From positions 17,946-81,945 of the forward strand of contig JBBQZK010000002.1 of the NCBI GenBank assembly GCA_038207785.1: a stretch of 64,000 nucleotides of DNA. The letters are read 5' to 3'. Made by a program: the position numbers and the translations under genes. This DNA is from Candidatus Limnocylindria bacterium. Its GTDB lineage: Bacteria; Chloroflexota; Limnocylindria; P2-11E. Below, one piece after another: positions 1 to 18,521 of the stretch (position 1 is the stretch's first letter; each line of letters starts with the position of its first letter). The notes below the pieces were generated by a model. It saw nothing but the letters and a program-made list of their open reading frames with translations. It was not told the origin of the DNA and made no database searches.

Positions 1-329
1 CAGCGGGCCTTCTGCTCGCCCGACGCGGCGGTCAGCAGGTGGCCGATGCATAACGAGTTGTGCGCCGCGAGGGTGAGCGCGATCGAGCCGTCCCCGGCCC
101 CAAGCTCTTCGGCGACCAGCGCGGTCGTCAGGGCATCGAGACCCGAGCCGGCGTGCTCCTCCGGGATCGTGAGGCCGGTCAGGCCGACGGATGCGAGCTC
201 TGGGAGGAGGGGCATCGGGAACTCGCCCTGCTCGCTCCACAGGGCGGCGCGCGGCACGATGCGCTCGCGGACGAACGCGCGGATCGCGTCGCGGACCGCC
301 AGCTGATCGTCGCGATAGCGCAGATCCAC
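1..329 (-). CDS. acyl-CoA dehydrogenase, N-terminal part (3' end outside window)
   Basis: My minus-strand translation of 1-329 reads VDLRYRDDQLAVRDAIRAFVRERIVPRAALWSEQGEFPMPLLPELASVGLTGLTIPEEHAGSGLDALTTALVAEELGAGDGSIALTLAAHNSLCIGHLLTAASGEQKAR, a typical ACAD N-terminal domain. The GTG start overlaps the TAG stop of the upstream gene. It is absent from the ORF track because it is truncated at the window edge. Confidence 0.7.
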   Translation of the reverse strand, partial: MDLRYRDDQLAVRDAIRAFVRERIVPRAALWSEQGEFPMPLLPELASVGLTGLTIPEEHAGSGLDALTTALVAEELGAGDGSIALTLAAHNSLCIGHLLTAASGEQKAR

Positions 330-709
330 TACGGGGTCGGGTACGCCGAGCGAACGCCCGCGTCGACGGTCGGCAGGATCTTGTCGACAAGGGCCTGGTC
401 CTTCTCGAGCACGCCGCGGTCGACATCCCACGCCGCCTTGCGCGCCGCCGCGAGCAGCTGGCGCTGATCCGCCGGCAGCTGCGCGAACGCGACGACCCGG
501 GCCCGAGTGAGCCGCTCGCGCTCGGTGTCGTTAGTCATGCGGGTGAGCTCGCGGAGCTGTGGGGTGAGCGCGCCGACCCGTGCGATGTCGTTCGGGATCG
601 CGGCGACGAGCGCGAGACGCTTCTTCCAGAATTCGATCGCGCCAGCCTCGTCGGTCCCACCCAGGGCCGCCAGGCCCACGTCGATCGGCCGGTCGTCCTT
701 CTTGGCCAT
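329..709 (-). CDS. hypothetical protein in the acyl-CoA catabolic operon
   Basis: 126-aa ORF (MAKKDDRPIDVGLAALGGTDEAGAIEFWKK...). It is sandwiched between the mutase B12 subunit and an ACAD gene with only a 1-nt junction. I recognise no domain. Confidence 0.45.
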   Translation of the reverse strand: MAKKDDRPIDVGLAALGGTDEAGAIEFWKKRLALVAAIPNDIARVGALTPQLRELTRMTNDTERERLTRARVVAFAQLPADQRQLLAAARKAAWDVDRGVLEKDQALVDKILPTVDAGVRSAYPTP

Positions 710-720
710 GTCGCTCCTCC

Positions 721-1134
721 TTATGCGGGCTGACCGCGGCGTTTCGCCACGGCCTCGCGAACGTACGCGATGATCTCCTCGAGCGAGGCGCCGGGCTGGA
801 AGATGCGCTCCACGCCATGTTCGCGGAGCGCGATGATGTCGTCCTCTGGGATGATCCCGCCCCCGAACAGGAGGACGTCAGCCATCCCCTTCTCCTTCAT
901 GAGCTCGGCCACGCGCGGGAACAGGTAGTTGTGAGCGCCCGACAGGAGCGAGAGACCGATCGCGTCGGCATCCTCCTGCAGGGCGGTCGCCACGACCTGC
1001 TCGGGCGTCTGATGCACGCCCGTGTAGATGACTTCCATCCCGGCATCCCGCAACGCTCGCGCCACCACCTTGACCCCCCGGTCGTGGCCGTCCAGCCCGG
1101 CCTTCGCCATGACGACGCGGATCGGCCGCTTCAT
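721..1134 (-). CDS. B12-binding small subunit of acyl-CoA mutase (isobutyryl-CoA/methylmalonyl-CoA mutase family)
   Basis: [72 protein letters not shown]... carries the DxHxxG-type cobalamin-binding domain. Start placed by codon arithmetic at the Met after an Arg-rich 5' extension. Its ATG overlaps the stop of the upstream DinB-like gene (ATGA). Confidence 0.8.
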
Positions 1135-1670
1135 TCGAGGCCCAGCTCCGTCGCATGCTCCTGATAGTGCCCGTAGGTGCAGCACGCCACGATGTCCACG
1201 AGCCGGTCGCCGTGCGTCCGAAGCTGCTCGTCGGTCAGTGCGGCGAGCTCCCTGCGCACCGCCCGGAAGGTCGTATCGAGCTCGTCGACGAGGGCCTCGG
1301 CTCCGACGAGCCGATGGCTCGTGACCACACGCGCGTTGAATGCGTCGGCGTCGGTGAACGCCGGCAACCCGAGCGCGACTTCGTCGCCCGGACCGGGTAC
1401 CGCGCCGTTGCTCCGGAACGCGCGGAGCCGGCGTGCGGTGAGATCGTGCCAGCCGGCGACGTGGGCGACGAGGTCGTGGAATGTCCAGCCCGCGCCGGTC
1501 GGCTCCGCCATCTTTGCGCGGCCGATATGGCGGACCGCCTCGCGGAACGGGCGCCAGCCGTCGTCCACGCGAGCGAGGAGCTCAGCTTGGGTCAATCGTG
1601 CGGCCGGGCCGGCTTTGCCGGCCGCGGCCGAGCCCCATTCAAAAGTACCCGGGGTCGTGGTACTCGCCAT
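1131..1670 (-). CDS. DinB/YfiT-like (DinB_2 superfamily) metal-dependent protein
   Basis: 179 aa with a [15 protein letters not shown] His motif and an [15 protein letters not shown]-terminal pattern typical of DinB_2. A strong GAAGGAGG RBS sits immediately 5' of the ATG. It lies between the mutase large and small subunits. Confidence 0.6.
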
Positions 1671-3312
1671 ATGCCTCCTTCAACACCTCGACCTGCTCAC
1701 CGACGGTCGCCATCGCGCGCGCGCATTCGACGAACGCCGGCATCAGCTCGGCGTGGGCCTTCGCCTCCGCGCGCAGACGGTCCATGGCCTCGCGCCACCG
1801 GCCCGCGTCACGGGCCGCGCGGGTGGCCTGGATGCGCGCGACCTGATTGGCCTCGACGTTCGGATCGATCGCGAGGACGGGGATCTTCCCGGCGGCCTTC
1901 TCGTCGACGTACTTGTTGATGCCGACGATGACCTTTTCCTTCTCCTCGACCTGCTGCTGGAAGTGGAACGAGGCCTCGATGATCTCGCGTTGCGGGTAGC
2001 CGCGCTCGACGGCAGCGACCATGCCGCCCATTCCGTCGATCTCGTCGCGATACTTCTCGAAGCCCTTCTCCATCTCGTTGGTGAGGTGCTCGAGGTAGTA
2101 CGAGCCGGCCAGCGGATCCACGGTCTCGCTGACCCCGGACTCGTGGGCGATCACCTGCTGCGTGCGGAGGGCCAGGGTCACGGCCTCTTCCGTCGGCAGG
2201 GCGTACGTCTCGTCGAGCGAATTCGTATGCAGGGAATTCGTGCCACCGAGCACGGCCGCGAGGGCCTGGAGCGCGACCCGGACGACGTTGTTGTATGGCT
2301 GCTGCGCCGTGAGCGACACACCGGCGGTCTGCGCGTGGGTGCGCATGAGGAGGGCCTTCTCGTTCGTCGGGTGGTAGCGACGCTCCATCTCGCGCGCCCA
2401 GATCCGGCGCGCCGCGCGGAACTTCGCGATCTCTTCGAAGAAGTCGTTGTGGACGTCGAAGAAGAAGGACAGGTGCGGCGCGAAGTCGTTCACGTCGAGC
2501 CCGGCGTCCACGCCCCACTTCACGTACTCGAGCCCATCGAGCAGCGTGAACGCGAGCTCCTGGACCGCCGTCGAGCCGGCCTCTCGGATGTGATAGCCGC
2601 TGATCGACACCGTGTTCCACTTCGGCACCTCCCGGGCGCCGTAGCGGAAGCTGTCTACGACGAGCTCCATCGCGGGCTTCACCGGGACGATCCACTCGCG
2701 TTGGGCGATGTACTCCTTGAGGCAGTCGTTCTGGATCGTGCCGCCGAGCTTGCTGAACGGGATCCCCCGCTCCTCGGCGGCGGCCAAGTACATCGCCCAG
2801 ACGATCGAGGCCGGGCCGTTGATGGTCATCGACGTGGTGACCTCGCCCAGAGGGATCTTGTCGAAGAGGATGCGCATGTCCGCGAGCGAGCTCACCGCGA
2901 CCCCTTCGCGGCCGACCTCGCCGCGCGACAGCGGGTCGTCCGCGTCGCGCCCCATGAGCGTCGGCATGTCAAAGGCCGTCGACAAGCCGGTCACGCCGTG
3001 CGCGAGCAGGTAGTGGAAGCGCGCGTTGGTGTCCTCGGCGGAGCCGAAGCCCGCGAACTGCCGCATGGTCCAGAGGCGCCCGCGGTACATCGAGGGATAC
3101 ACGCCGCGCGTGTACGGGAACTGCCCGGGCAGCCCGAGGTCGCGCTCGGGATCGAAGTCCGGCAGGTCATCCGCCGTGTACAGCGGATCGACCGGCAGAT
3201 CGGACAGCGTCGAGAACCGCGACTTGCGCTCGGGATGCGCGGCGATCGCGGTCTCGTATTTTTCGAGCCACCGCGACTTCGCGGTCCCGGTCTCGGCGTT
3301 CTCGGCTTTCAT
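1639..3312 (-). CDS. acyl-CoA mutase large (catalytic) subunit; residue signature suggests isobutyryl-CoA mutase
   Basis: 557 aa. [23 protein letters not shown]...[16 protein letters not shown]...[12 protein letters not shown]...LRTHAQTAG...[28 protein letters not shown] aligns to the MCM alpha catalytic TIM-barrel. It has no C-terminal B12 domain, so this is the split form. The ATG overlaps the stop of the upstream ACAD (ATGA). Confidence 0.9.
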
Positions 3313-4460
3313 GCCGCCACCAGTGACCGGGCGATGACCATGCGCTGTACCTCGCTCGTTCCTTCATAGATCGTGGTCGCGCGGGCGTCGCGGAAGTACC
3401 GCTCGATACCGTACTCGCGCATGTAGCCGTAGCCCCCGAACACCTGCAGGCACGCGTACGCAGCCCGGTTGGCGGCTTCGCTGGCGTAGAGCTTCGCCAT
3501 CGCGGCCTCGCGAGTGAACCGCACCCCCCGATCCTTCAGCCATGCGGCACGCAGCACGAGGAGCCGGGCAGCATCGAGCTCCGTCCGCACGGTGCTGAGC
3601 GAGAAGCGGATCGCTTGGAACGAGGCGATCGGTGCGCCGAACTGCCGGCGCTCCTTCGCATAGCCGGCGGCGAGCCCGAGGGCGCCACGGGCGATGCCGC
3701 AGGACTGCGCCGCGATGCCGATGCGCCCGGCGTCGAGCCCGGCCATCGCCACGTCGCCGAAGCCCTTGCCCTCCGTGCCGAGCACCGCGCTCGCGGGGAT
3801 CCGCGCGCCGTCGAACGTGACGGCACTGGTCTCCGACGCCTGCAGCCCCAGCTTGTGCTCGGGCTTCCCGATGATGACGCCGGGCGTCCCCGCCGGGACG
3901 AGGAACGCGGTGATGCCGGCGTGGGGTCGAGCCGGCGCGGCCGTACCGATGCGTGCGAGCACGATGAAGAAGGGTGCGTAGCTCGCGCTGGTGACGAAGA
4001 GCTTGGTGCCGCGGAGGATCCAGCACTCGTCGTCCCGCGTTGCCGTCGCGCGGAGGGAGGCCGCATCGGATCCGGACGTAGGCTCGGTCAGACAGAAGCC
4101 CGCGAGGCCGCGGCCGTCCGAGAGCATCGGGAAGAACGCGCGCTTCTGCTCGACAGTACCGAGCCTCGCGATCGAGGTCGCGACGATGCCGCTGTTGACC
4201 GACACACCGACCGCGAGCGACGGCCACACGGCCGCGAGCTCCTCGAGGACGAGCGCGAACGCCACCGCCGACGCGCCGAGCCCGCCGTCGCTTTCCGGCA
4301 CGTTCATGCCGAGGATCCCAAGCTCGCCGAGGGACCGGGTCACGTCCATCGGGATCGTGCCCTCGGTCTCGGCGGCCGGAACGCGGTCCCGCAGTCCGCG
4401 CGCGAATGCGCCGACGCCCGCGGCGAGGTCGCGCTCCTCCGCCCCCGCGAACGGGAACAT
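3309..4460 (-). CDS. acyl-CoA dehydrogenase
   Basis: Start [10 protein letters not shown]... at 4460 by codon arithmetic inside ORF 3309..5078. ACAD motifs present: [45 protein letters not shown]. The ATG overlaps the etfA stop. Confidence 0.85.
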
Positions 4461-5344
4461 CAGGCGCCGGCCTTCGCATTCTTCACCGCGTCGGCGAACG
4501 CCGGGAGGAACTCGAACACGTCGCCGACGATGCCGTAGTCGGCGACCTTGAAGATGTCGGCATCCGGATCCTTGTTCACGGCCACGATGACCTTGCTCGA
4601 GGTCATGCCGGCGAGGTGCTGGATCGCCCCCGAGATACCGAGCGCGATGTAGAGGTCCGGGCTCACGGTCTTGCCGGTCTGGCCGACCTGCTCCTCGTTC
4701 GGCCGCCAGCCCGCGTCCGTAACGGCCCGCGACGCGCCCAGCGCGGCACCGAGGACGTCCGCCAGCGCCTCGACCTGGGTCCAGCCTTCGGGCCCCTTCA
4801 GTCCCCGGCCGCCGGACACGATCACCCGCGCTTCGCTGAGCGGCACGCGGCCGCCGCCGGACGCCGTCGGCTCGAAACGGACGAACGTGAGACCGGGGGC
4901 GTCCTGCGCCGCGACGCCCGTGACCTGCGGATCCGCGGCGCCGTCGGAGAGCGGGAACGCGTTCGGGCGCACGCTCACGACGGCCGGCAGGGCCGCGCGC
5001 ACCCGCGCCCGGACCTTCCCGGCGTACATGCCGCGCGTCGCTTCGACCGCTGCGCCGTCGATCGCAAGATCGGTGCATTCGGAGAGATACGCGCGGCCCA
5101 GCTTCGCCGCGAGCCGTGCGGCGACGTCGCGGCCCGATGGCGTGGCGCCGAGGAGGATGAGGTCGGGCGCATCCGTCTTCGCGCGCGCGGCCAGGGCGGT
5201 CGCGGCCGCCACGGCCGAGACGCGCTCGCCCGCGACCTCGAGGACGGTCGCGTCGCCGAGGGCTGCCGCTTTCGCGGCGAGCTCCTTCGAGACGCGGCGC
5301 AGCGTCCCGTCAGTGGACCGTTCGGCGATGACCCAGATCTTCAT
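4460..5344 (-). CDS. etfA: electron transfer flavoprotein alpha subunit
   Basis: MKIWVIAERS... with the C-terminal FAD-binding region (VIVAVNKDPDADIFKVADYGIVGDVFEFLP). Start by arithmetic in ORF 4460..5695. The ATG overlaps the etfB stop (ATGA). Confidence 0.9.
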   Translation of the reverse strand: MKIWVIAERSTDGTLRRVSKELAAKAAALGDATVLEVAGERVSAVAAATALAARAKTDAPDLILLGATPSGRDVAARLAAKLGRAYLSECTDLAIDGAAVEATRGMYAGKVRARVRAALPAVVSVRPNAFPLSDGAADPQVTGVAAQDAPGLTFVRFEPTASGGGRVPLSEARVIVSGGRGLKGPEGWTQVEALADVLGAALGASRAVTDAGWRPNEEQVGQTGKTVSPDLYIALGISGAIQHLAGMTSSKVIVAVNKDPDADIFKVADYGIVGDVFEFLPAFADAVKNAKAGA

Positions 5345-6111
5345 AGGACCTTCGCCTCGTCGCGCAAGAGCGTGGCGAGCTCGGCGGCGAACGCCTTCGT
5401 GTCGCCGTCCTTGAAGATCTTCCCTCCGCCGCGTGCCGGCGGCGGCTCCAGCTTCACGATCTCGAGCTTCACCGCATCGGCCACGCCGGCGACCGGCCGT
5501 TCGGGGATCTCCTTCTTCTTCGCTTTCATGATCCCGGGCAGCGACGGGTAGCGCGGGTCCTTCGCGCTCTTCTGCACGGTCAGCACGGCCCCGCCGCTCG
5601 CGTTCCAGACCTCGTGGCCGCCCTCGGTCTCCTTCCACACCTCCGTACCGCCCGCGACCGGGGCGAACTTCGTCACGACCGCGACGTGCGGCCACCCGAG
5701 GGCCTCCGCGAGCGCGGGACCGACGAAGCCCTGGTCGTCATCCGACGCCTGCTTCCCGCAGAGCACGAGGTCCGGCTTCAGCTCGTCGACCGCGCTCTTC
5801 AGCGCGTTGGCGATCCCGAGCGGCCCGAGTGCGTCGGCGCCCTCGCCGGTGACGAGCGTCGCGTCATCGCAGCCCATCGCCAGCGCCTGGCGCAGGGCGT
5901 CCTTCGTCCGCGGGCCGCCGACACTGATGACGCTCACCACCGTGTCGGCCGCGGTGTCTTTGTGCTCGAGCGCGAGCTCGATGGCGTACTCGTCGTACGG
6001 CGAGATGGACCACGTGACGCCATCCGTGACCACGGACGCGCCATCCGGCGCGACCTTGACCCGCGTCGTCGAGTCGGGGACCTGCTTGATGCAGATGAGC
6101 AGCCTCGTCAT
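5341..6111 (-). CDS. etfB: electron transfer flavoprotein beta subunit
   Basis: MTRLLICIKQVPDSTTRVKV... is the canonical EtfB N-terminus. The ATG overlaps the stop of the upstream EtfD-like gene. Confidence 0.9.
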   Translation of the reverse strand: MTRLLICIKQVPDSTTRVKVAPDGASVVTDGVTWSISPYDEYAIELALEHKDTAADTVVSVISVGGPRTKDALRQALAMGCDDATLVTGEGADALGPLGIANALKSAVDELKPDLVLCGKQASDDDQGFVGPALAEALGWPHVAVVTKFAPVAGGTEVWKETEGGHEVWNASGGAVLTVQKSAKDPRYPSLPGIMKAKKKEIPERPVAGVADAVKLEIVKLEPPPARGGGKIFKDGDTKAFAAELATLLRDEAKVL

Positions 6112-8117
6112 CGAATCACTCCTTCACCGTTGAGCCGCGCCGCCACCAGCTCCAGGACATCCACCGGTTTCAGCGTGTCCTGGATCCCCTTCGCGCCCAC
6201 GCCCTCGTCAAGCATGATGAGACAGAAGGGACAGCCCGATGCGACCTTGGAGGGCTGCGCGCCGATGGCGTCGCCGGCGGCGAGGATCTGCTCGACCCTG
6301 CGGTGATTGACCCGCTGGCCGATCTTCTCCTCCATCCACATCCGGCCGCCACCCGCGCCGCAGCAGAAGCCCCGCTCGCGGTGGTGCGGCTCGATCTCCA
6401 TCCGGCTCACGCCGTCCATCGCGTCCAGCACCGCGCGAGGGTCGTCGTAGATGCCGTTGTGCCGGCCGAGGTAGCAGGGGTCGTGGTACGCGACCGATTC
6501 CGTGACGCCCGGGCCGAGCACGATCCGCTTGTCCGCGATCAGATCCTGGACGAGCTGCAGGGCGTGCACCACCTCATAGGTGCCCCCGAGCTGCGGATAT
6601 TCGTTCGCGAACGTGTTGAAACAGTGGGGGCACGACGCGATGATCTTGCGGATCTTGTAGCGGCCGAATGTCTCGATGTTCTGCTGAGCCTGCAGTTGCC
6701 AGAGGTATTCGTTCCCCATCCGGCGCGCCGGGTCGCCGTTGCAGGTCTCTTCCGTCGCGAGGATGGCGAAGGACAGGCCCGCCGACGTGAGGATCTTTGC
6801 CAGCGCCTGGGCGACGCGCTGGTTCCGGCGATCGAACGAGGCCGCGCAGCCGACGAAGTACAGGTACTCCGCGTCGGGCATCTCGGCGAACGTCGGCACC
6901 CCGAGACCCTCCGACCAGTCGCCGCGCGTGCCCGCCGGCTCGCCCCAGGGATTCCCTGCGCGCTCGATGTTCGTCATGGCACGCTGCGCCTCGGGCGGCG
7001 CGGCGGCCTCCTGCATGGTGAGGTAGCGGCGCATGTCGACGATCTTGTCGATGTGCTCGATCGTGACCGGGCACTGCTCGACGCACGCGGCGCACGTGGT
7101 GCACGCCCAGAGCTCGTCCGGCTTCGTCGGCAGCTGATGCGCCGGCGGTGTGCCGGTGGCCAGGGGGTCCTTGAGCAGGGCATCGCCTTCCTTCAGCAGC
7201 AGGTCACGCAGATCGAGCACGATCTTCTGCGGGTCGAGCGGCTTGCCCGTCGCGAGGGCCGGACAGTTGTCCGAGCAGCGCCCGCACTCGGTGCAGGTGT
7301 AGCCATCGAGGTGCTGCTTCCACGAGAAGTCGCGCAGGCTCGCCGCGCCGAACGCCTCCTGCTCCTCGATCTGTTCCACGAACCGGAGCGCGCCGCGGGG
7401 CCGCTGCGACCGGAAGAACACGTTGGGCAGGGTCGTCACGATGTGCAGGTGCTTCGACTGCGGGAGGTACGCCGCGAACGCGAGGACCGTGACGACGTGC
7501 ACCCACCACGCGGCCGCGAACACCGATCCGGCGGCGCCGGCGGGGTACGGGATCGGCAGGAGCTGCGCGAACGGCGGCGTCGACTGGCGCACGGCGAGAT
7601 AGCCCGCGGCGACACCGGCGTTCTCGAACAGGAGCAGGGAGACCATCAGGGTCGCGATGAGCCCGAGGATGATGTAGCCGTCGAGCGCGATATGCATCCG
7701 GGGCGGCTTGAAGAACGCCCGCCGGACGAGCGCGAGCACGATGGACGCGAGCACGAGAGCCGCGAACACGTCCACGGCCCACACGAACGCGCCGCTCTCC
7801 GCACCGGGCATGCGCAGGCCGAACAGGCCGCTGGCGAGCAGGTCGACCGTGCCCAGCGTGATGACGATGAAGCCCCAGAAGATGAACGCGTGGGCGATGC
7901 CCCGGATGTAGTACGGACGCTTCAACAGCTTGCGCTGCAACACGTAGATGACGAGCTCGTCCTTCAGGCGCCTGCCCAGGTGCGCCCGCCGATCCTCGTT
8001 CCAGCCGAGCCGGAGATAGCGGTACAGTTTCCAGGCCCGGTACCCGAACGCGCCGAAGCCAAGGATGGCCACCGCCGCGAGCACGACCGCGCCGAGGCCC
8101 TGCGTCGGTGGGATCAC
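6108..8117 (-). CDS. membrane-bound Fe-S oxidoreductase with CCG domains (EtfD-like, Etf-quinone oxidoreductase candidate)
   Basis: The C-terminal ~670 aa of ORF 6108..9017 hold N-terminal transmembrane helices, two 4Fe-4S Cys clusters (CTECGRCSDNCP, CTTCAACVEQCP) and two CCG cysteine-rich domains (CCGAGGG...CPFC). I propose a GTG start at VIPPTQGLG, overlapping the TGA of the upstream ACAD (GTGA). Confidence 0.75.
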   Translation of the reverse strand: MIPPTQGLGAVVLAAVAILGFGAFGYRAWKLYRYLRLGWNEDRRAHLGRRLKDELVIYVLQRKLLKRPYYIRGIAHAFIFWGFIVITLGTVDLLASGLFGLRMPGAESGAFVWAVDVFAALVLASIVLALVRRAFFKPPRMHIALDGYIILGLIATLMVSLLLFENAGVAAGYLAVRQSTPPFAQLLPIPYPAGAAGSVFAAAWWVHVVTVLAFAAYLPQSKHLHIVTTLPNVFFRSQRPRGALRFVEQIEEQEAFGAASLRDFSWKQHLDGYTCTECGRCSDNCPALATGKPLDPQKIVLDLRDLLLKEGDALLKDPLATGTPPAHQLPTKPDELWACTTCAACVEQCPVTIEHIDKIVDMRRYLTMQEAAAPPEAQRAMTNIERAGNPWGEPAGTRGDWSEGLGVPTFAEMPDAEYLYFVGCAASFDRRNQRVAQALAKILTSAGLSFAILATEETCNGDPARRMGNEYLWQLQAQQNIETFGRYKIRKIIASCPHCFNTFANEYPQLGGTYEVVHALQLVQDLIADKRIVLGPGVTESVAYHDPCYLGRHNGIYDDPRAVLDAMDGVSRMEIEPHHRERGFCCGAGGGRMWMEEKIGQRVNHRRVEQILAAGDAIGAQPSKVASGCPFCLIMLDEGVGAKGIQDTLKPVDVLELVAARLNGEGVIR

Positions 8118-9292
8118 GCCAAGAGGTCCTCGGAGATGATGAGCTTCATGATCTCGCTCGTACCTTCGTAGATCTCGGTGATCTTCGCGTCGCGATAGTG
8201 ACGCTCGGCCGGGTAGTCCTTCAGGTAGCCGTAGCCCCCGAAGATCTGGACGCAGTTCCGGGCTGACTTCATCGCGACGTCCGACGCGAATAGCTTCGCC
8301 ATCGCCGCCTCGGCGCTGAACGGCTCCCCGCGGTCCTTGAGCGTCGCGGCGCGCCACGTCATGAGCCGCGCGGCGTCCAGCTCGGTGGCCATGTCCGCGA
8401 GCATCCACTGGATCGCCTGCAGCTCCGCGATCGGCTTGCCGAACGCCTGACGCTCCTTCGCGTACGCGAGGGAATCCTCGAGGCAGGCCCGGCCGATGCC
8501 GACCGCCTGCGCGGCGATCCCGATGCGGCCCCCATCGAGCGTCGAGAGAGCGATCCTGAATCCCTCGCCGATCTCGCCGAGGCGCTGGTCGTCGTCGACG
8601 CGCACGTTCTCGAACACCAGCTGCGCCGTGTCCGAGCCCTTGATCCCGAGCTTTTGCTCGACGCGCCCGACGGAGAGGCCCGGCGTGGGCTTGTCGACGA
8701 CGAACGCGGTGATGCCCGTGTGCCGCGAGCCCGGCTCGGTCTGCGCGAACACGACGACGACATCCGATGTCACGCCGTTGGTGATGAAGTTCTTGGTGCC
8801 GCTGAGTAGCCATCCCGAGCCGTCCCGCTTGGCGGTCATCTGGAGGCCGGCCGCGTCCGAACCCGACGCCGGCTCGGTCAGCGCGAAGCAGCCCAGCTTC
8901 TCGCCTTGCGCGAGCGGGCGAAGCCACCGCTCCTTCTGCTCGGGCGTCCCGCACTTCAGCAGCGGCCCGCAGGCAAGCGAGTTGTGGGCCTGCATGACCA
9001 CGCCCGTCGACGCGCACGCCCGATTGATCTCCTCGGACGCGAGGATGTACGACACGGTGTCGAGACCTGCGCCGCCCAGCTCCTCCGGAACGTAGATGCC
9101 CATGAAGCCGAGCGCCGCGAGCTCCTTCAGGATGGCCGGCGGGATCTTGCCCTGCTCGTCGATGTCGTGCGCGATCGGCAACAGCTTGTCGGTCGCGAAA
9201 TCGCGGGCCGTCCGCTGGACGAGCTCCTGCGAGTCGGTCAGCGAGAGATCGAACGCCGCGCCGGCGTCCGTCGGCTCAGTGGTCGTGGTCAT
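8114..9292 (-). CDS. acyl-CoA dehydrogenase
   Basis: 392 aa: MTTTTEPTD...GCFALTEPASGSDA...FGGYGYLKDYPAERHYRDAKITEIYEGTSEI. Classic ACAD. Confidence 0.85.
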   Translation of the reverse strand: MTTTTEPTDAGAAFDLSLTDSQELVQRTARDFATDKLLPIAHDIDEQGKIPPAILKELAALGFMGIYVPEELGGAGLDTVSYILASEEINRACASTGVVMQAHNSLACGPLLKCGTPEQKERWLRPLAQGEKLGCFALTEPASGSDAAGLQMTAKRDGSGWLLSGTKNFITNGVTSDVVVVFAQTEPGSRHTGITAFVVDKPTPGLSVGRVEQKLGIKGSDTAQLVFENVRVDDDQRLGEIGEGFRIALSTLDGGRIGIAAQAVGIGRACLEDSLAYAKERQAFGKPIAELQAIQWMLADMATELDAARLMTWRAATLKDRGEPFSAEAAMAKLFASDVAMKSARNCVQIFGGYGYLKDYPAERHYRDAKITEIYEGTSEIMKLIISEDLLA

Positions 9293-9650
9293 GGCCGTGC
9301 TCCTCGTTCACGTGTATGCCGATGAACCTGCCGTCAGGATCGCGCGCGAAGAAATAGTCGCCGTAGAAGTCACCGACCACCGCCTTCGCCGCCTTGGCCT
9401 TCTCGAAGGCGGCCGTCACGTCGTCGACGCCGAACCACACGACGAACGCACCCTGCCCGCGGACCTCGGCCGGCGTCTCCCGGTCATCGGGCGAATGGAA
9501 CACCACATCGGCGTTCTCCGCGCGGAGCCAGCTCGCGTTCGGATCGCCGCCCGTTCCTGCCGGAAGGCCGACGAGGTCCGCATAGAAGCGGGCCGTGGCG
9601 GCGTGGGTGGCCGAGAACGCGAACACCGGGCCGACCTGCGGACCGCTCAC
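9276..9650 (-). CDS. VOC (glyoxalase/bleomycin-resistance/dioxygenase) family protein
   Basis: ~124 aa from the proposed GTG ([30 protein letters not shown]...[12 protein letters not shown]). The GTG overlaps the hbd stop (GTGA). I infer the fold from the pattern only. Confidence 0.5.
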
Positions 9651-10489
9651 TTCGGGTACTCGAAGAAGCCCCGCCCGCTCTTCCGCCCGAGCCAGCCTGC
9701 GTGCACGTACTGCTTCAGCAGCGGCGCGGGCCGGTACTTCGGATCGCCGAGGTCGCGCTGCAGGACCTCCAGTACGGCCAGGCACACGTCGAGCCCGATG
9801 AGATCGGCGAGGGCGAGCGGGCCCATCGGGAAGTTGAGGCCCTTCATCATCGTGTCGATCGCGTCCGCGGTGCCGACGCCTTCCGCGAGCGCGAAGACCG
9901 CCTCGTTGATCATCGGCATCAGCACGCGGTTCGCGATGAATCCTGGCGCGTCGTTCGACTCGACGGCCGTCTTCCCGAGCGCCTTCGCGAGCTCGCGGGC
10001 GCGCTCCATGGTCGCGTCATCCGTCTGCAGGCCGCGAATGAGCTCGACGTACCCCATCACGGGAACGGGATTCATGAAGTGCATCCCGACGACCTGTCCG
10101 GGGCGCTTCGTCGCGGCGGCGAGCGTGGTGATCGAGATGCTCGAGGTGTTGGACGCCAGCACCGCCGCGGGCTTGCAGGTCGCGTCCAGCTTGCGAAACA
10201 GCTCCGTCTTGACCGCGGCGTCCTCGAACGCCGCTTCGACGACGAAGTCGACCGTGGCGAGGTCGCTCATCGCGGTGCTGATGCGGATCCGGCCGGCGAT
10301 CTCGGCCGCCGGACGCGGCAGCCTGCCCTTCGGCTCGAGCCGCGCGAGCGATCCCGCGATCACGGCCTGGCCGCGCTGCAGCTGCTCGAGGCCGATGTCC
10401 ACGAGGACGACCTGCAGACCCGCCGTCGCACAGACCTGCGCGATGCCGGCGCCCATCGTGCCCGCGCCGACAACACCGATCTGCTCCAT
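9647..10489 (-). CDS. hbd: 3-hydroxybutyryl-CoA dehydrogenase (3-hydroxyacyl-CoA dehydrogenase, NAD-binding)
   Basis: [19 protein letters not shown]... Rossmann motif and C-terminal 3HCDH domain ([23 protein letters not shown]). Confidence 0.85.
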
Positions 10490-11665
10490 CTAGAGCGCCT
10501 CGACCGCGAGCGCAACGGCCTCGCCGCCGCCGAGGCAGAGCGACACGACGCCACGGCGCATGCCCCGCGCGCGCAGCGCGTACAGGAGCGTCACCAGGAG
10601 GCGCGCGCCAGACGCGCCGATCGGGTGGCCCAGGGCGACCGCGCCGCCGTTCACGTTGAAGCGATCCTCGGCGATACCGAGCTCACGTCGGACGGCTTCG
10701 ATGCCCGAGAAGGCCTCGTTCACTTCGTACAGGTCCACCTCGCCTGCGCTCCAGCCGGCCTTCTCGAGCACGCGCGCGATGGCGCCAGCTGGAGCGAGGA
10801 GAAAGAGGTCCGGTTCGTGAGCGAATTGGGCCTGGGCGACGATGCGCGCGAGCGGCCTCGCGCCAAGCTCGCGCGCGCGCGTCTCACCGGCCACCACGAG
10901 CGCAGCAGCTCCGTCGTTCAGCTTCGATGCGTTGCCCGCGGTGACGGTCCCATCGGGCGTGAACGCGGGCTTGAGCGCGGCCAGCGCGGCGAGCGTCGTC
11001 TCGCGCGGCGACTCGTCCTGTTCCACCCTGCTCATGTGGCCCTTGCGACCGGGCACGTCGACGGGGACGATCTCGGCGCTGAAGGCGCCACTGCGCTGCG
11101 CTGCGAGTGCCTTCTCGTACGACCGCAGAGCGAAGCGATCCTGGTCCGCGCGCGTCAGTCCGCTCTTCGCCGCGGCCTTCTCGCCACCGAGTCCCATATG
11201 CCCGCCGCCGTACGCGTCGACGAGGCCGTCGGTGAGATTCGCGTCCTCCATCGAATGCTCCCCGAGCGTGAGCCCCTGCCGCAGGCCGCGGAGCAGATAC
11301 GGAGCGTTGGACATCGACTCCATGCCGCCGGCGACGATGACGCCGTACTCGCCCGCGGCGATCTGCGAGGCGGCCAGCATCACCGCCTTCAACCCCGACC
11401 CGCAGACCTTGTTGATCGTCGTGCACGGAACGCTGCGCGGTAGACCCGCGCCGAGCGCGGCCTGCCGCGCGGGCGCCTGACCGACACCGGCCTGCAGGAC
11501 GGAGCCCATGAATACCTCATCGATCCGTTCGGGTGCCACGCCGCTGCGCTCGATCGCGCACCTGATCGCGATGGCCCCGAGCTGGGGCGCTTGCATCGGC
11601 GCGAGGCCACCCAGGAACGCGCCGATGGGCGTGCGGGCCGCGCCGAGGATGACGCTCTGCTCCAT
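10490..11665 (-). CDS. acetyl-CoA C-acetyltransferase (thiolase II)
   Basis: 391 aa: MEQSVILGAARTPIGAF...NKVCGSGLKAV... (Cys nucleophile), ...NVNGGAVALGHPIGASGARL...CLGGGEAVA. Directly abuts hbd. Confidence 0.9.
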   Translation of the reverse strand: MEQSVILGAARTPIGAFLGGLAPMQAPQLGAIAIRCAIERSGVAPERIDEVFMGSVLQAGVGQAPARQAALGAGLPRSVPCTTINKVCGSGLKAVMLAASQIAAGEYGVIVAGGMESMSNAPYLLRGLRQGLTLGEHSMEDANLTDGLVDAYGGGHMGLGGEKAAAKSGLTRADQDRFALRSYEKALAAQRSGAFSAEIVPVDVPGRKGHMSRVEQDESPRETTLAALAALKPAFTPDGTVTAGNASKLNDGAAALVVAGETRARELGARPLARIVAQAQFAHEPDLFLLAPAGAIARVLEKAGWSAGEVDLYEVNEAFSGIEAVRRELGIAEDRFNVNGGAVALGHPIGASGARLLVTLLYALRARGMRRGVVSLCLGGGEAVALAVEAL

Positions 11666-12078
11666 CAGCGGTCGGCCTCGAGGAGCCGCTGGGTCACGTG
11701 CTCGCGGTAGCTGCGGATCTCGTCGCGGAGGGCCCGGAGCTCGGCGATGCGCCCGTCCACCGAGAGCAGGTGGGCGTCGAGGAGCTCGATGAGCCGCGGC
11801 AGCACGGTCCGGTTGCTTCGTTGCGAGGTGTAGATGCCCTCGAGCTCGTGCATCTCCTGGAGCGACAGGCCAAGGAGCTTCAGCTTGCGGATGAACTTGA
11901 GGCGTCGGACATCGTCGTCGGTGTACACGCGGGTCCCGCCGTCGAGGCGCTTCACCGAATCGAGCAGGCCGAGCTCCTCGTAGTAGCGGATGGTCCGTTC
12001 GGTCATGCCGAGCTTCGCGGCGAGCTCTCCGATGCGATAGCCCACCGTCGCCGGCTTGTTCAACGTCGCTCGCGCCAC
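11665..12078 (-). CDS. MerR-family transcriptional regulator
   Basis: GYRIGELAAKLGMTERTIRYYEELGLL helix-turn-helix with a C-terminal coiled-coil region. GTG start preceded by a GGGGAGG RBS. Its stop overlaps the thiolase ATG by 1 nt, so it is the first gene of the operon. Confidence 0.8.
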   Translation of the reverse strand: MARATLNKPATVGYRIGELAAKLGMTERTIRYYEELGLLDSVKRLDGGTRVYTDDDVRRLKFIRKLKLLGLSLQEMHELEGIYTSQRSNRTVLPRLIELLDAHLLSVDGRIAELRALRDEIRSYREHVTQRLLEADR

Positions 12079-16067: not shown

Positions 16068-17291
16068 ATGTATAGGCCGCAGAACCTGCGGATCCCCGGT
16101 CCAACGTTCGTCCCTCAGACCGTGCTGAACGCGTCGGCGCGGCCGATGATCAATCACCGCGGGCCCGAATTCGCCGCGCTCATGGCCGGCCTGACGCGCG
16201 CCCTGCAGGAGTTCCTCAACACCGAAGGCGACGTCTTCCTCCTCACGGCCTCCGGGTCGGGGGGCATGGAAGCGGCGATCGTGAACACGTTGTCCGGCGG
16301 CGACCGGGTGCTGCTGTTCGTCAACGGTGCGTTCGGCGAGAAGTTCGCCGCGGTCTGCAAGGCCTACGGCGTTGACGCGCGCCGCGTCGACGTGCCGTGG
16401 GGCCGCGCGGTGGAGCCTGACCTCGTGCGCGACGAGCTCGCGAAGGAGAAGGGGAAGGACGGCGCGAAGGCCGTCCTCATCACCCACAACGAGACCTCGA
16501 CCGGCGTGCTCAACCCGTTGAAGGAGATCGCCGAGGTCGTGCGCGAGTCGGGCAAGCTCCTCATCGTCGACAGCGTGTCCGGCGCGGGCGCGGTCGAGCT
16601 CATGCACGACGACTGGGGCATCGACGTCCTCATCTCAGCGTCGCAGAAAGCCTGGGGCGCGCCTCCCGGCCTCGCGATGGTCACGATGAGCGAGAAGGCC
16701 TGGAAGGCGTACGACCGGTCGAACCTGCCGAAGCTCTACTTCGATCTGCAGACGTACAAGGCCGCGCTCGAGAAGGGCGCCACCCCGGCGACGCCGGCGA
16801 TCAGCGTGTTCATCGGGCTGCAGGAGTCGTTGCGGCTTATGGCCGAAGAGGGCCAGGCCGCCATCATCAAGCGGCACCGCGATCTCGCGTACGCGACGCG
16901 GCGGGGGCTCCAGGCGTTGAACCTCGGCATCTTCGGTGACGAGCGGTACGCGTCGCCCTGCGTGACGGCGTTCCGCATGCCGACCCGCGTCGACCCGCGC
17001 AACCTCATCCGCATCCTGCGCGACGACTACGACACCGTCATCGCCGGCGGCCAGGCACGCATCGAGGGACAGATCGCGCGCGTCGGGCACATGGGCTTCG
17101 TGACGCTGCAGGACATCGTCGCGCTCTTCGGCGCGCTCGAGCCGGCCCTGAAGGACCTCAATCAGCCCGTCGAGCCGGGCCAGGCGATCTCCGCGGTGCT
17201 GCGGGCGCACGCCGAAACGTCGGCACCGCCGGCACGGACCGTCCGCGGCGGTCCTCGGCGCGAGCCCGATGCGGTGGCCGCCCGCCGCTAG
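16068..17291 (+). CDS. class-V aminotransferase (serine-pyruvate / alanine-glyoxylate aminotransferase family)
   Basis: MYRPQNLRIPGPTFVPQTVLNA... with a GGAGAGGA RBS 9 nt upstream. SASQKAWGAPPG contains the PLP-binding Lys. The 5' 615 nt of ORF 15453..17291 is antisense to rpe and is rejected. Confidence 0.85.
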   Translation: MYRPQNLRIPGPTFVPQTVLNASARPMINHRGPEFAALMAGLTRALQEFLNTEGDVFLLTASGSGGMEAAIVNTLSGGDRVLLFVNGAFGEKFAAVCKAYGVDARRVDVPWGRAVEPDLVRDELAKEKGKDGAKAVLITHNETSTGVLNPLKEIAEVVRESGKLLIVDSVSGAGAVELMHDDWGIDVLISASQKAWGAPPGLAMVTMSEKAWKAYDRSNLPKLYFDLQTYKAALEKGATPATPAISVFIGLQESLRLMAEEGQAAIIKRHRDLAYATRRGLQALNLGIFGDERYASPCVTAFRMPTRVDPRNLIRILRDDYDTVIAGGQARIEGQIARVGHMGFVTLQDIVALFGALEPALKDLNQPVEPGQAISAVLRAHAETSAPPARTVRGGPRREPDAVAARR

Positions 17292-17305
17292 CGACACCGC
17301 TCGTT

Positions 17306-18157
17306 TCACCCGAGCGCGCGAAGGCGCGGCAGGAGCTCCCGCGCCGCGAGCTCCCCGAGCCTGACCGGGTCGGGACCGGCGAGCATGACGATCTGCTCGG
17401 TGAAGCCGGCCTTCAGGTAGGTCTCGGCGACCTTCAGGGACTCGTCGACCGTCGTGAGCCGGAACTGCACCGAGCGGCGGACCGCGTTCGGATCGCGGCC
17501 GACCGCACGGCAGTGCTCGTCGAGCACGTTCGACAGGGCGATGGTCTTGTCCATCTCCCCGGCATTCGAGTTCCACACGTCGCCGTGCCGTGCGACGATC
17601 TTGAGCGTCCGCCGCGGGCCGGAGCCCCCGATCCAGATCGGCGGATACGGCTTCTGCAGGGGCTTCGGCTCAGCGATCGCGTCCGTCAGCGCGAAGTACT
17701 TCCCTTTGAAATTCGCGCGCTCGTGCGTCCACAGACGCTTGATGACGCGCACCGCCTCGCCAAAGCGCCCGAGGCGCTCGCCGAGCGGCGGGAACTCCAT
17801 GCCGAGCTGCGCGAACTCCGGCTCGTTCCATCCGGCGCCGATGCCGAACTCGAGCCGGCCGCCGGAGAGGTGGTCGATCGTGGCGCCGATCTTCGCGTGC
17901 ATCGCGGGGTGCCGGTACAGACTTCCCGCGACCATCAGCCCGATGCGCACGCGCTTCGTCGCCTCGGCCATGGCGGCGAGCATCGACCAGCCCTCGAACA
18001 CCGGCTGCGTCGGATCGTCGCCGAGCGCAAGCAGATGGTCAAAGCCCCAGAGCCCGTCGAATCCGGCGTCGTCGGCGATCTTCCAGACCGCGCGATGCGT
18101 CGGGACGGGATGGATCTGCGGCGAGAGCTTCAGTCCGATGCGGAGCGGATGCGCCAT
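17306..18157 (-). CDS. LLM-class (luciferase-like) F420-dependent oxidoreductase
   Basis: 283 aa with the typical LLM N-terminus (IGLKLSPQ..., FDGLWGFDHL) and GSGPRRTLKIVARHGDVWN. Confidence 0.8.
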   Translation of the reverse strand: MAHPLRIGLKLSPQIHPVPTHRAVWKIADDAGFDGLWGFDHLLALGDDPTQPVFEGWSMLAAMAEATKRVRIGLMVAGSLYRHPAMHAKIGATIDHLSGGRLEFGIGAGWNEPEFAQLGMEFPPLGERLGRFGEAVRVIKRLWTHERANFKGKYFALTDAIAEPKPLQKPYPPIWIGGSGPRRTLKIVARHGDVWNSNAGEMDKTIALSNVLDEHCRAVGRDPNAVRRSVQFRLTTVDESLKVAETYLKAGFTEQIVMLAGPDPVRLGELAARELLPRLRALG

Positions 18158-18209
18158 CGGCCGAGCCTAGCGGCGACCGCGAACGAGCGGGTCGTATAGT
18201 CCTCGCCTC

Positions 18210-18521
18210 ATGGAAGCAGCGCGCTTCGAGCGCACGGTCCGCACCGAGTCGAGCGAGATCTTCGCCATCTACGGCGGCGCCCGCCGCGTCGGACGCGTCG
18301 ATCTCCATTACGGCCGGTTCGAGGTGAACGCGACCTTGCTGCTCGAAGTGGAGCTCACGGACGACGAGCTGCAGCAGCTGATCGATCAGCTCGACGAAGA
18401 GCTCGTGCAGACGCACGATCCGGAGCGCGAGGACTTCCTCGTGACCGTGTTCAAGTCCGAGGAGCTCGGCTTCTACTCCGATGAGTTCGAAGAGGACGAC
18501 GAGGACGAGGACGAGAGGTAG
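18210..18521 (+). CDS. hypothetical acidic protein
   Basis: 103-aa ORF with ATG start. Its C-terminal FEEDDEDEDER tail is antisense to the poly-Ser tail of the convergent epimerase ORF, so one of the two tails is probably not translated. Confidence 0.4.
   Translation: MEAARFERTVRTESSEIFAIYGGARRVGRVDLHYGRFEVNATLLLEVELTDDELQQLIDQLDEELVQTHDPEREDFLVTVFKSEELGFYSDEFEEDDEDEDER

Follow-up and report, generated by a model that had tools for sequence, protein, structure and literature searches.

The isobutyryl-CoA mutase (ICM) of Streptomyces cinnamonensis (EC 5.4.99.13) is encoded by two genes: the large subunit, IcmA, lacks a B12 domain and carries a Phe/Gln pair at its two substrate-specificity positions, and the small subunit, IcmB, has about 137 residues. 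The 2-hydroxyisobutyryl-CoA mutase (HCM) of Aquincola tertiaricarbonis, HcmA/HcmB (PDB 4R3U), is also split, as are the archaeal-type methylmalonyl-CoA mutases (MCM), which have a Tyr/Arg large subunit. In IcmF of Cupriavidus metallidurans (4XC6; NF045497), B12 domain, MeaB-type GTPase and mutase barrel are united in one chain of about 1100 residues. Limnocylindria are abundant soil and freshwater Chloroflexota, and we analyzed 64,000 nucleotides (hereafter the window) of a metagenome-assembled genome (MAG) of a Candidatus Limnocylindria bacterium (GCA_038207785.1; 2.48 Mb in 126 contigs, 92.7% complete, GC about 69%). The window is C2:17946-81945, where C2 denotes contig JBBQZK010000002.1. 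Two minus-strand genes at its left end very probably specify the two parts of an adenosylcobalamin-dependent acyl-CoA mutase of the split IcmA/IcmB type, predicted to interconvert isobutyryl-CoA and n-butyryl-CoA (Table 1).

The 557-residue large subunit proved to be a homologue of the MCM alpha chain, as the original prediction had held. PF01642 (MM_CoA_mutase) spans residues 35-549 and the protein has no B12 domain. Its scores fall below the equivalog cut-offs for both MCM (NF006944, 606 versus 876 bits) and IcmF (NF045497, 317 versus 1500 bits). Identity as an IcmF was rejected on the latter score and on gene structure: the locus resembles IcmF in predicted chemistry and in having B12, G-protein and mutase parts, but here these are encoded by three separate genes.

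Alignments made with phmmer and MAFFT against 1REQ, 5REQ, 2XIJ, 6OXC and HcmA place phenylalanine (RQFAGF) at the position of P. shermanii MCM Tyr89 and glutamine (IAQREW) at that of Arg207 (MVRNTY). The original prediction had assigned the glutamine correctly, but had located Tyr89 in NAFYRRN and had read the phenylalanine from NARFHYL, a segment that is irrelevant to specificity. Tyr89 lies in TIRQYAGF, the sequence of the wild-type enzyme (1REQ), from which the chain of 5REQ, presumably the Y89F mutant, differs there by phenylalanine only. The tyrosine of TIRQYAGF is residue 88 and the arginine of MVRNTY residue 206 of the 1REQ chain, and hence a common offset of +1 places residues 89 and 207 together. 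As the phenylalanine of RQFAGF and the glutamine of IAQREW stand at the true positions, the conclusion that the protein has a Phe/Gln pair survives this error. The spacing of residues within the family agrees with the placement: from the isoleucine of HcmA RQIAGF it is 27 residues to the aspartate of ISTDFD and 118 to the glutamine of MAQKEY, matching Ile90, Asp117 and Gln208. PMC7238569, citing Jost et al. 2015, gives Tyr-92 and Arg-210 of R. rubrum MCM as the two specificity sites, and these are likewise 118 residues apart.

The Phe/Gln combination is not peculiar to this genome. When each species was represented by a single genome and scanned for DNA that could code for WT[MI]RQFAGFG, at least 120 loci emerged, which span Streptomyces and other Actinomycetota, Solirubrobacterales, Gemmatimonadota, Acidobacteriota, Nitrospira, Planctomycetota, Ignavibacteriota, Asgard archaea and haloarchaea. 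Although selection was on the phenylalanine motif alone, glutamine occupies the Arg207 position in all 83 full-length proteins among the matches listed.

Phylogeny grouped the large subunit with these proteins. A quick first tree had nested HcmA among the Phe/Gln rows with weak support (87), a placement that we discarded in favor of a careful mixture-model tree (70 rows, LG+C20+F+G4, posterior mean site frequencies), which separated them. There all Phe/Gln rows group in a single clade (43/43, support 97/94) containing the query and the IcmA orthologues of Streptomyces, Microbispora and Kribbella. All Tyr/Arg rows fall outside this clade with the MCMs, including the paralogue from the same genome, P0123. 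Within the Phe/Gln clade the query belongs to a four-genome group (100/100) that is sister to Nitrospira plus the cluster representative P0124 (99/98). Since the query shares a clade with the Streptomyces IcmA orthologues and stands apart from both MCM and HcmA, we assign it to the ICM type. The reading of the original prediction is thus supported by both residues and tree; of the contrary outcomes it had named, Tyr/Arg at the specificity positions and clustering with genuine MCMs, neither was observed for this subunit, whereas the paralogue shows both.

Could the enzyme be an HCM, which would interconvert 3-hydroxybutyryl-CoA and 2-hydroxyisobutyryl-CoA? HcmA is the best PDB match of the large subunit (E 7.7e-165; the IcmF match is weak, 4e-73) and HcmB that of the small subunit, both enzymes are split and have glutamine at the Arg207 position, and a 3-hydroxyacyl-CoA dehydrogenase gene (hbd) lies in the operon. 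However, HcmA scores highest only because the PDB holds no split IcmA structure. Ile90 and Asp117 are what we take to be the defining residues of HcmA (RQIAGF, ISTDFD), and the query has phenylalanine at the first of these positions and alanine (LSTAFDMP) at the second. HcmA and the other Ile/Gln/Asp-type rows, moreover, form a clade of their own (98/87) outside the Phe/Gln clade. An HCM was rejected on these residues and the tree and is very improbable.

An MCM is what the databases would suggest. Close homologues of the large subunit are named 'methylmalonyl-CoA mutase' in public sources, and there is the partial match to NF006944. The shortfall of that match, the lack of both Tyr89 and Arg207 and the presence on the same contig of a separate Tyr/Arg paralogue beside propionyl-CoA carboxylase and an epimerase-like gene all argue otherwise, as does the tree, which splits the two paralogues. 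We rejected this identity too on residues and tree, and find it scarcely credible. The names given to the homologues are almost certainly mislabelling of enzymes whose predicted substrates are isobutyryl-CoA and butyryl-CoA, and the annotation as methylmalonyl-CoA mutase should be changed accordingly.

The surroundings of the gene pair point to the same chemistry. Along the minus strand the genes run MerR, thiolase, 3-hydroxyacyl-CoA dehydrogenase, EtfD-like oxidoreductase, EtfB, EtfA, acyl-CoA dehydrogenase (ACAD), large subunit, DinB-like protein, small subunit, orf126, ACAD and MeaB, with many junctions in this string overlapping by 1-4 nucleotides. The operon context given by the original prediction therefore holds for the thiolase, the dehydrogenase and the Etf pair; two ACADs were seen in the operon rather than the three it had counted. 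Its statement that the window contains no MeaB-like chaperone is literally true yet misleading, for about 800 bp past the left edge the same strand carries a MeaB gene, as part of the run icmA-dinB-icmB-orf126-ACAD-meaB. Genes for thiolase, Hbd, ACAD or Etf also turn up repeatedly beside the Phe/Gln mutases of Nitrospira, Actinomycetota and Natrialba, which supports a link of these mutases to the oxidation of C4 acyl-CoAs. In 8-kb stretches around the 83 genes among the matches listed, a small subunit gene was adjacent in 31 and MeaB in 11. The Streptomyces Phe/Gln loci had neither of them nearby within 8 kb, and in this respect the Limnocylindria locus differs from the Streptomyces system: its subunit genes are linked with only the DinB-like gene between them, they sit in a beta-oxidation/Etf operon, and meaB belongs to the string.

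Residues, phylogeny and this context form the basis of the substrate assignment, and several points weigh against it. The subclade of the query is known from sequence alone. The tree support comes by way of congeneric orthologues: the trees were built without IcmF and with Streptomyces orthologues in place of the characterized S. cinnamonensis IcmA, to which orthology is presumed, and the query shows only about 50% identity to those orthologues. Large-subunit identities are 64% to Nitrospira, about 51% to the Streptomyces orthologues, 51% to its own Tyr/Arg paralogue and 48% to HcmA. No crotonase gene is present in the operon, the five crotonase-family (ECH) genes of the genome all being on other contigs. 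Finally, a Phe/Gln pair does not fix a single substrate, as ICM and IcmF enzymes also convert isovaleryl-CoA and pivalyl-CoA (PMC10481361).

This last point opens the main rival explanation, that the enzyme is a Phe/Gln-pocket mutase acting chiefly on another uncharged branched acyl-CoA such as isovaleryl-CoA or pivalyl-CoA, with isobutyryl-CoA and butyryl-CoA as a side activity. Besides the breadth of the IcmF-type ICMs, the placement of the query in a subclade that unites Limnocylindria with Nitrospira and P0124 and is distinct from that of Streptomyces would fit such a role, as would two flanking ACADs of unassigned specificity. The pocket tells against it. At 25 of 26 sampled pocket-region positions the large subunit has the same residue as the Streptomyces IcmA orthologues, and it differs from MCM at pocket positions 89, 119, 163, 207 and 209. 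The Phe/Gln family is also repeatedly linked to Hbd and acetoacetyl-CoA thiolase, both of them C4 enzymes. We consider a C5 substrate unlikely, and retain isobutyryl-CoA/n-butyryl-CoA as the predicted pair.

For an ICM of this kind, the following scheme can be proposed. The 557-residue subunit would bind the acyl-CoA, and the 137-residue subunit would bind B12 through the histidine of its DxHxxG motif. With Phe/Gln in place of the carboxylate-binding Tyr/Arg, the pocket should fit an uncharged C4 acyl group and allow isobutyryl-CoA and n-butyryl-CoA to be interconverted. n-Butyryl-CoA would then be oxidized by the flanking ACADs, with electrons passing to EtfAB and on to the EtfD-like oxidoreductase, and crotonases encoded elsewhere, Hbd and thiolase would complete its conversion to two molecules of acetyl-CoA. 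MeaB, four genes downstream, may serve in cofactor loading and repair. Overall this would be a route from valine or isobutyrate to acetyl-CoA, although the reaction is reversible and the direction of flux is a prediction. By such a route Limnocylindria would connect valine/isobutyrate with butyrate oxidation in a B12-dependent way.

The small subunit is, as originally described, the product of a separate gene of 137 codons. Its DGHDRG conforms to the cobalamin-binding DxHxxG motif, and its best PDB matches are HcmB (4R3U_C, 2e-42) and 2YXB (1e-39). The latter, entitled only 'Coenzyme B12-dependent mutase' in the PDB, is presumably the small subunit of the archaeal MCM of Aeropyrum pernix. The protein is thus nearly as close to a split archaeal-type MCM as to HcmB, and the architecture is the same. 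Unlike the split MCMs, the large subunit encoded beside it is Phe/Gln, the Tyr/Arg role being taken here by the paralogue P0123. Conservation within the genus is higher for the small subunit (91-100%) than for the large one (85-95%). The small subunit is also the only B12-binding protein found: a PF02310 search of this 92.7% complete assembly gave no second B12-binding domain and no MetH-type or other corrinoid-domain protein. A PduO-type adenosyltransferase is encoded in the genome. An Rfam search of the 35 kb surrounding the mutase genes gave no match, whether to a cobalamin riboswitch or to another family.

Beyond MeaB, on the same strand, follow an MBL-fold gene, the carboxyltransferase of propionyl-CoA carboxylase, biotin carboxylase, biotin carboxyl carrier protein, P0123 and a glyoxalase-fold epimerase-like gene. 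P0123, the Tyr/Arg large subunit (RQYAGF, IARGTY), lies about 9 kb from the Phe/Gln large subunit. The stretch C2:8613-14188, outside the window, makes up a complete propionyl-CoA-to-succinyl-CoA module of carboxylase, large subunit and epimerase-like gene, which lacks its own small subunit.

The counts of these genes are uneven. Hidden Markov model searches (TIGR00640 and PF02310 for the small subunit, which was also sought by tblastn) found two large subunits, one small subunit and one MeaB in the assembly. Nearly all of the 31 genomes of the class have two large subunits and a single small subunit above cut-off, including near-complete assemblies of only 2-7 contigs (G022, G024, G026 and G030), and wherever both large subunits of a genome were read, one was Tyr/Arg and the other Phe/Gln. 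The same pattern holds for three complete chromosomes, one each from Binatia, Bryobacterales and Solirubrobacterales, and for a Nitrospira MAG: every one of these four unrelated genomes has one split Tyr/Arg and one split Phe/Gln large subunit alongside one stand-alone small subunit, and all further B12 domains in them are within fused enzymes. As the 2:1 pattern occurs in almost all of the 31 related genomes and in the four unrelated ones, it is likely that one small subunit and one MeaB serve both the Phe/Gln ICM and the Tyr/Arg MCM large subunits as a shared, exchangeable cofactor module; this is the simplest reading of the gene counts. We found no description, in the literature searched, of one small subunit shared by two large subunits of different specificity. 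The 2:1 arrangement is widespread in bacteria. If the reading is right, one cofactor-carrying subunit would be common to two enzymes of different specificity, and the shared module would be an object of competition between the two mutases or a means of their co-regulation.

Table 1 Features of the split mutase locus and its surroundings, in the order of transcription.
Feature	Length (aa)	Position in window	Position on contig C2	Strand	Evidence
MerR-family regulator, first gene of the co-directional string		11665-12078		-	PF13411, PF00376
Acetyl-CoA acetyltransferase/thiolase		10490-11665		-	Thiolase_N/C, TIGR01930
3-Hydroxyacyl-CoA dehydrogenase (Hbd)		9647-10489		-	PF02737/PF00725
EtfD-like Fe-S/CCG oxidoreductase		6108-9017		-	CCG and 4Fe-4S dicluster domains in C-terminal half
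EtfB		5341-6111		-	PF00766/PF01012 (EtfA and EtfB pair)
EtfA		4460-5344		-	PF00766/PF01012 (EtfA and EtfB pair)
Acyl-CoA dehydrogenase directly upstream of large subunit; stop overlaps mutase start	~384	3309-4463		-	Acyl-CoA_dh_N/M/1
IcmA-like large (substrate-binding) subunit	557	1639-3312		-	PF01642 1e-213, TIGR00641 6e-217, PDB alignments, site table, tree
DinB_2/MDMPI_N-like gene between the mutase subunits	179	1131-1670		-	PF12867 7e-10, PF11716 2e-7
IcmB-like small adenosylcobalamin-binding subunit	137	721-1134		-	TIGR00640 2e-47, PF02310 1e-24; DGHDRG, SLL and GGG motifs
orf126, conserved gene between small subunit and next acyl-CoA dehydrogenase	126	329-709		-	strong AAGGAGG before ATG
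Second acyl-CoA dehydrogenase, 5' part (gene crosses left window edge)		1-431	17141-18376	-	Pfam Acyl-CoA_dh_N/M/1
MeaB, outside window	313		16203-17144	-	PF03308 1e-93
P0123, second large subunit, Tyr/Arg (RQYAGF, IARGTY)	530		9062-10654	same as mutase operon	site alignment, tree

The open frame of the EtfD-like gene, which is coupled to etfBA, is probably longer than the gene itself: as its N-terminal 500 residues have no family match, the true start probably lies downstream of 9017. The DinB-like gene between the two mutase subunits has an ATG at 1670 preceded by AAGGAGG, and overlaps the 3' end of the large-subunit gene by 32 nucleotides. Throughout the genus it keeps this position, with 62-73% identity, and it is duplicated in a genome of the same order (L022); no copy of it turned up at the 83 other Phe/Gln loci among the matches listed. 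orf126, which gave no Pfam or NCBIfam match, is a conserved gene whose copies within the genus share 59-94% identity.

Other families of the class (genomes G021-G030, loci L036-L045) have a different Phe/Gln subclade with the motifs RMFAGF, AYDMPT and AQKEY. In G021-G030 some 16 kb separate the large subunit gene from a cassette of small subunit, MeaB and Hbd, so that the two are not linked as they are in the window. Among relatives taken as representatives of 50%-identity clusters (P0124-P0273), the residue pairs at the specificity sites are highly varied (V/V, L/V, I/L, V/E, N/S, Q/H and others). Proteins with such pairs, many of them in clades of their own, are probably mutases for unknown substrates. 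One representative, P0161 (913 residues; similarly P0177, 887 residues), has a Phe/Gln mutase barrel fused at its C terminus to a B12 domain and then to a MeaB-like GTPase, a triple fusion whose domain order is not that of IcmF.

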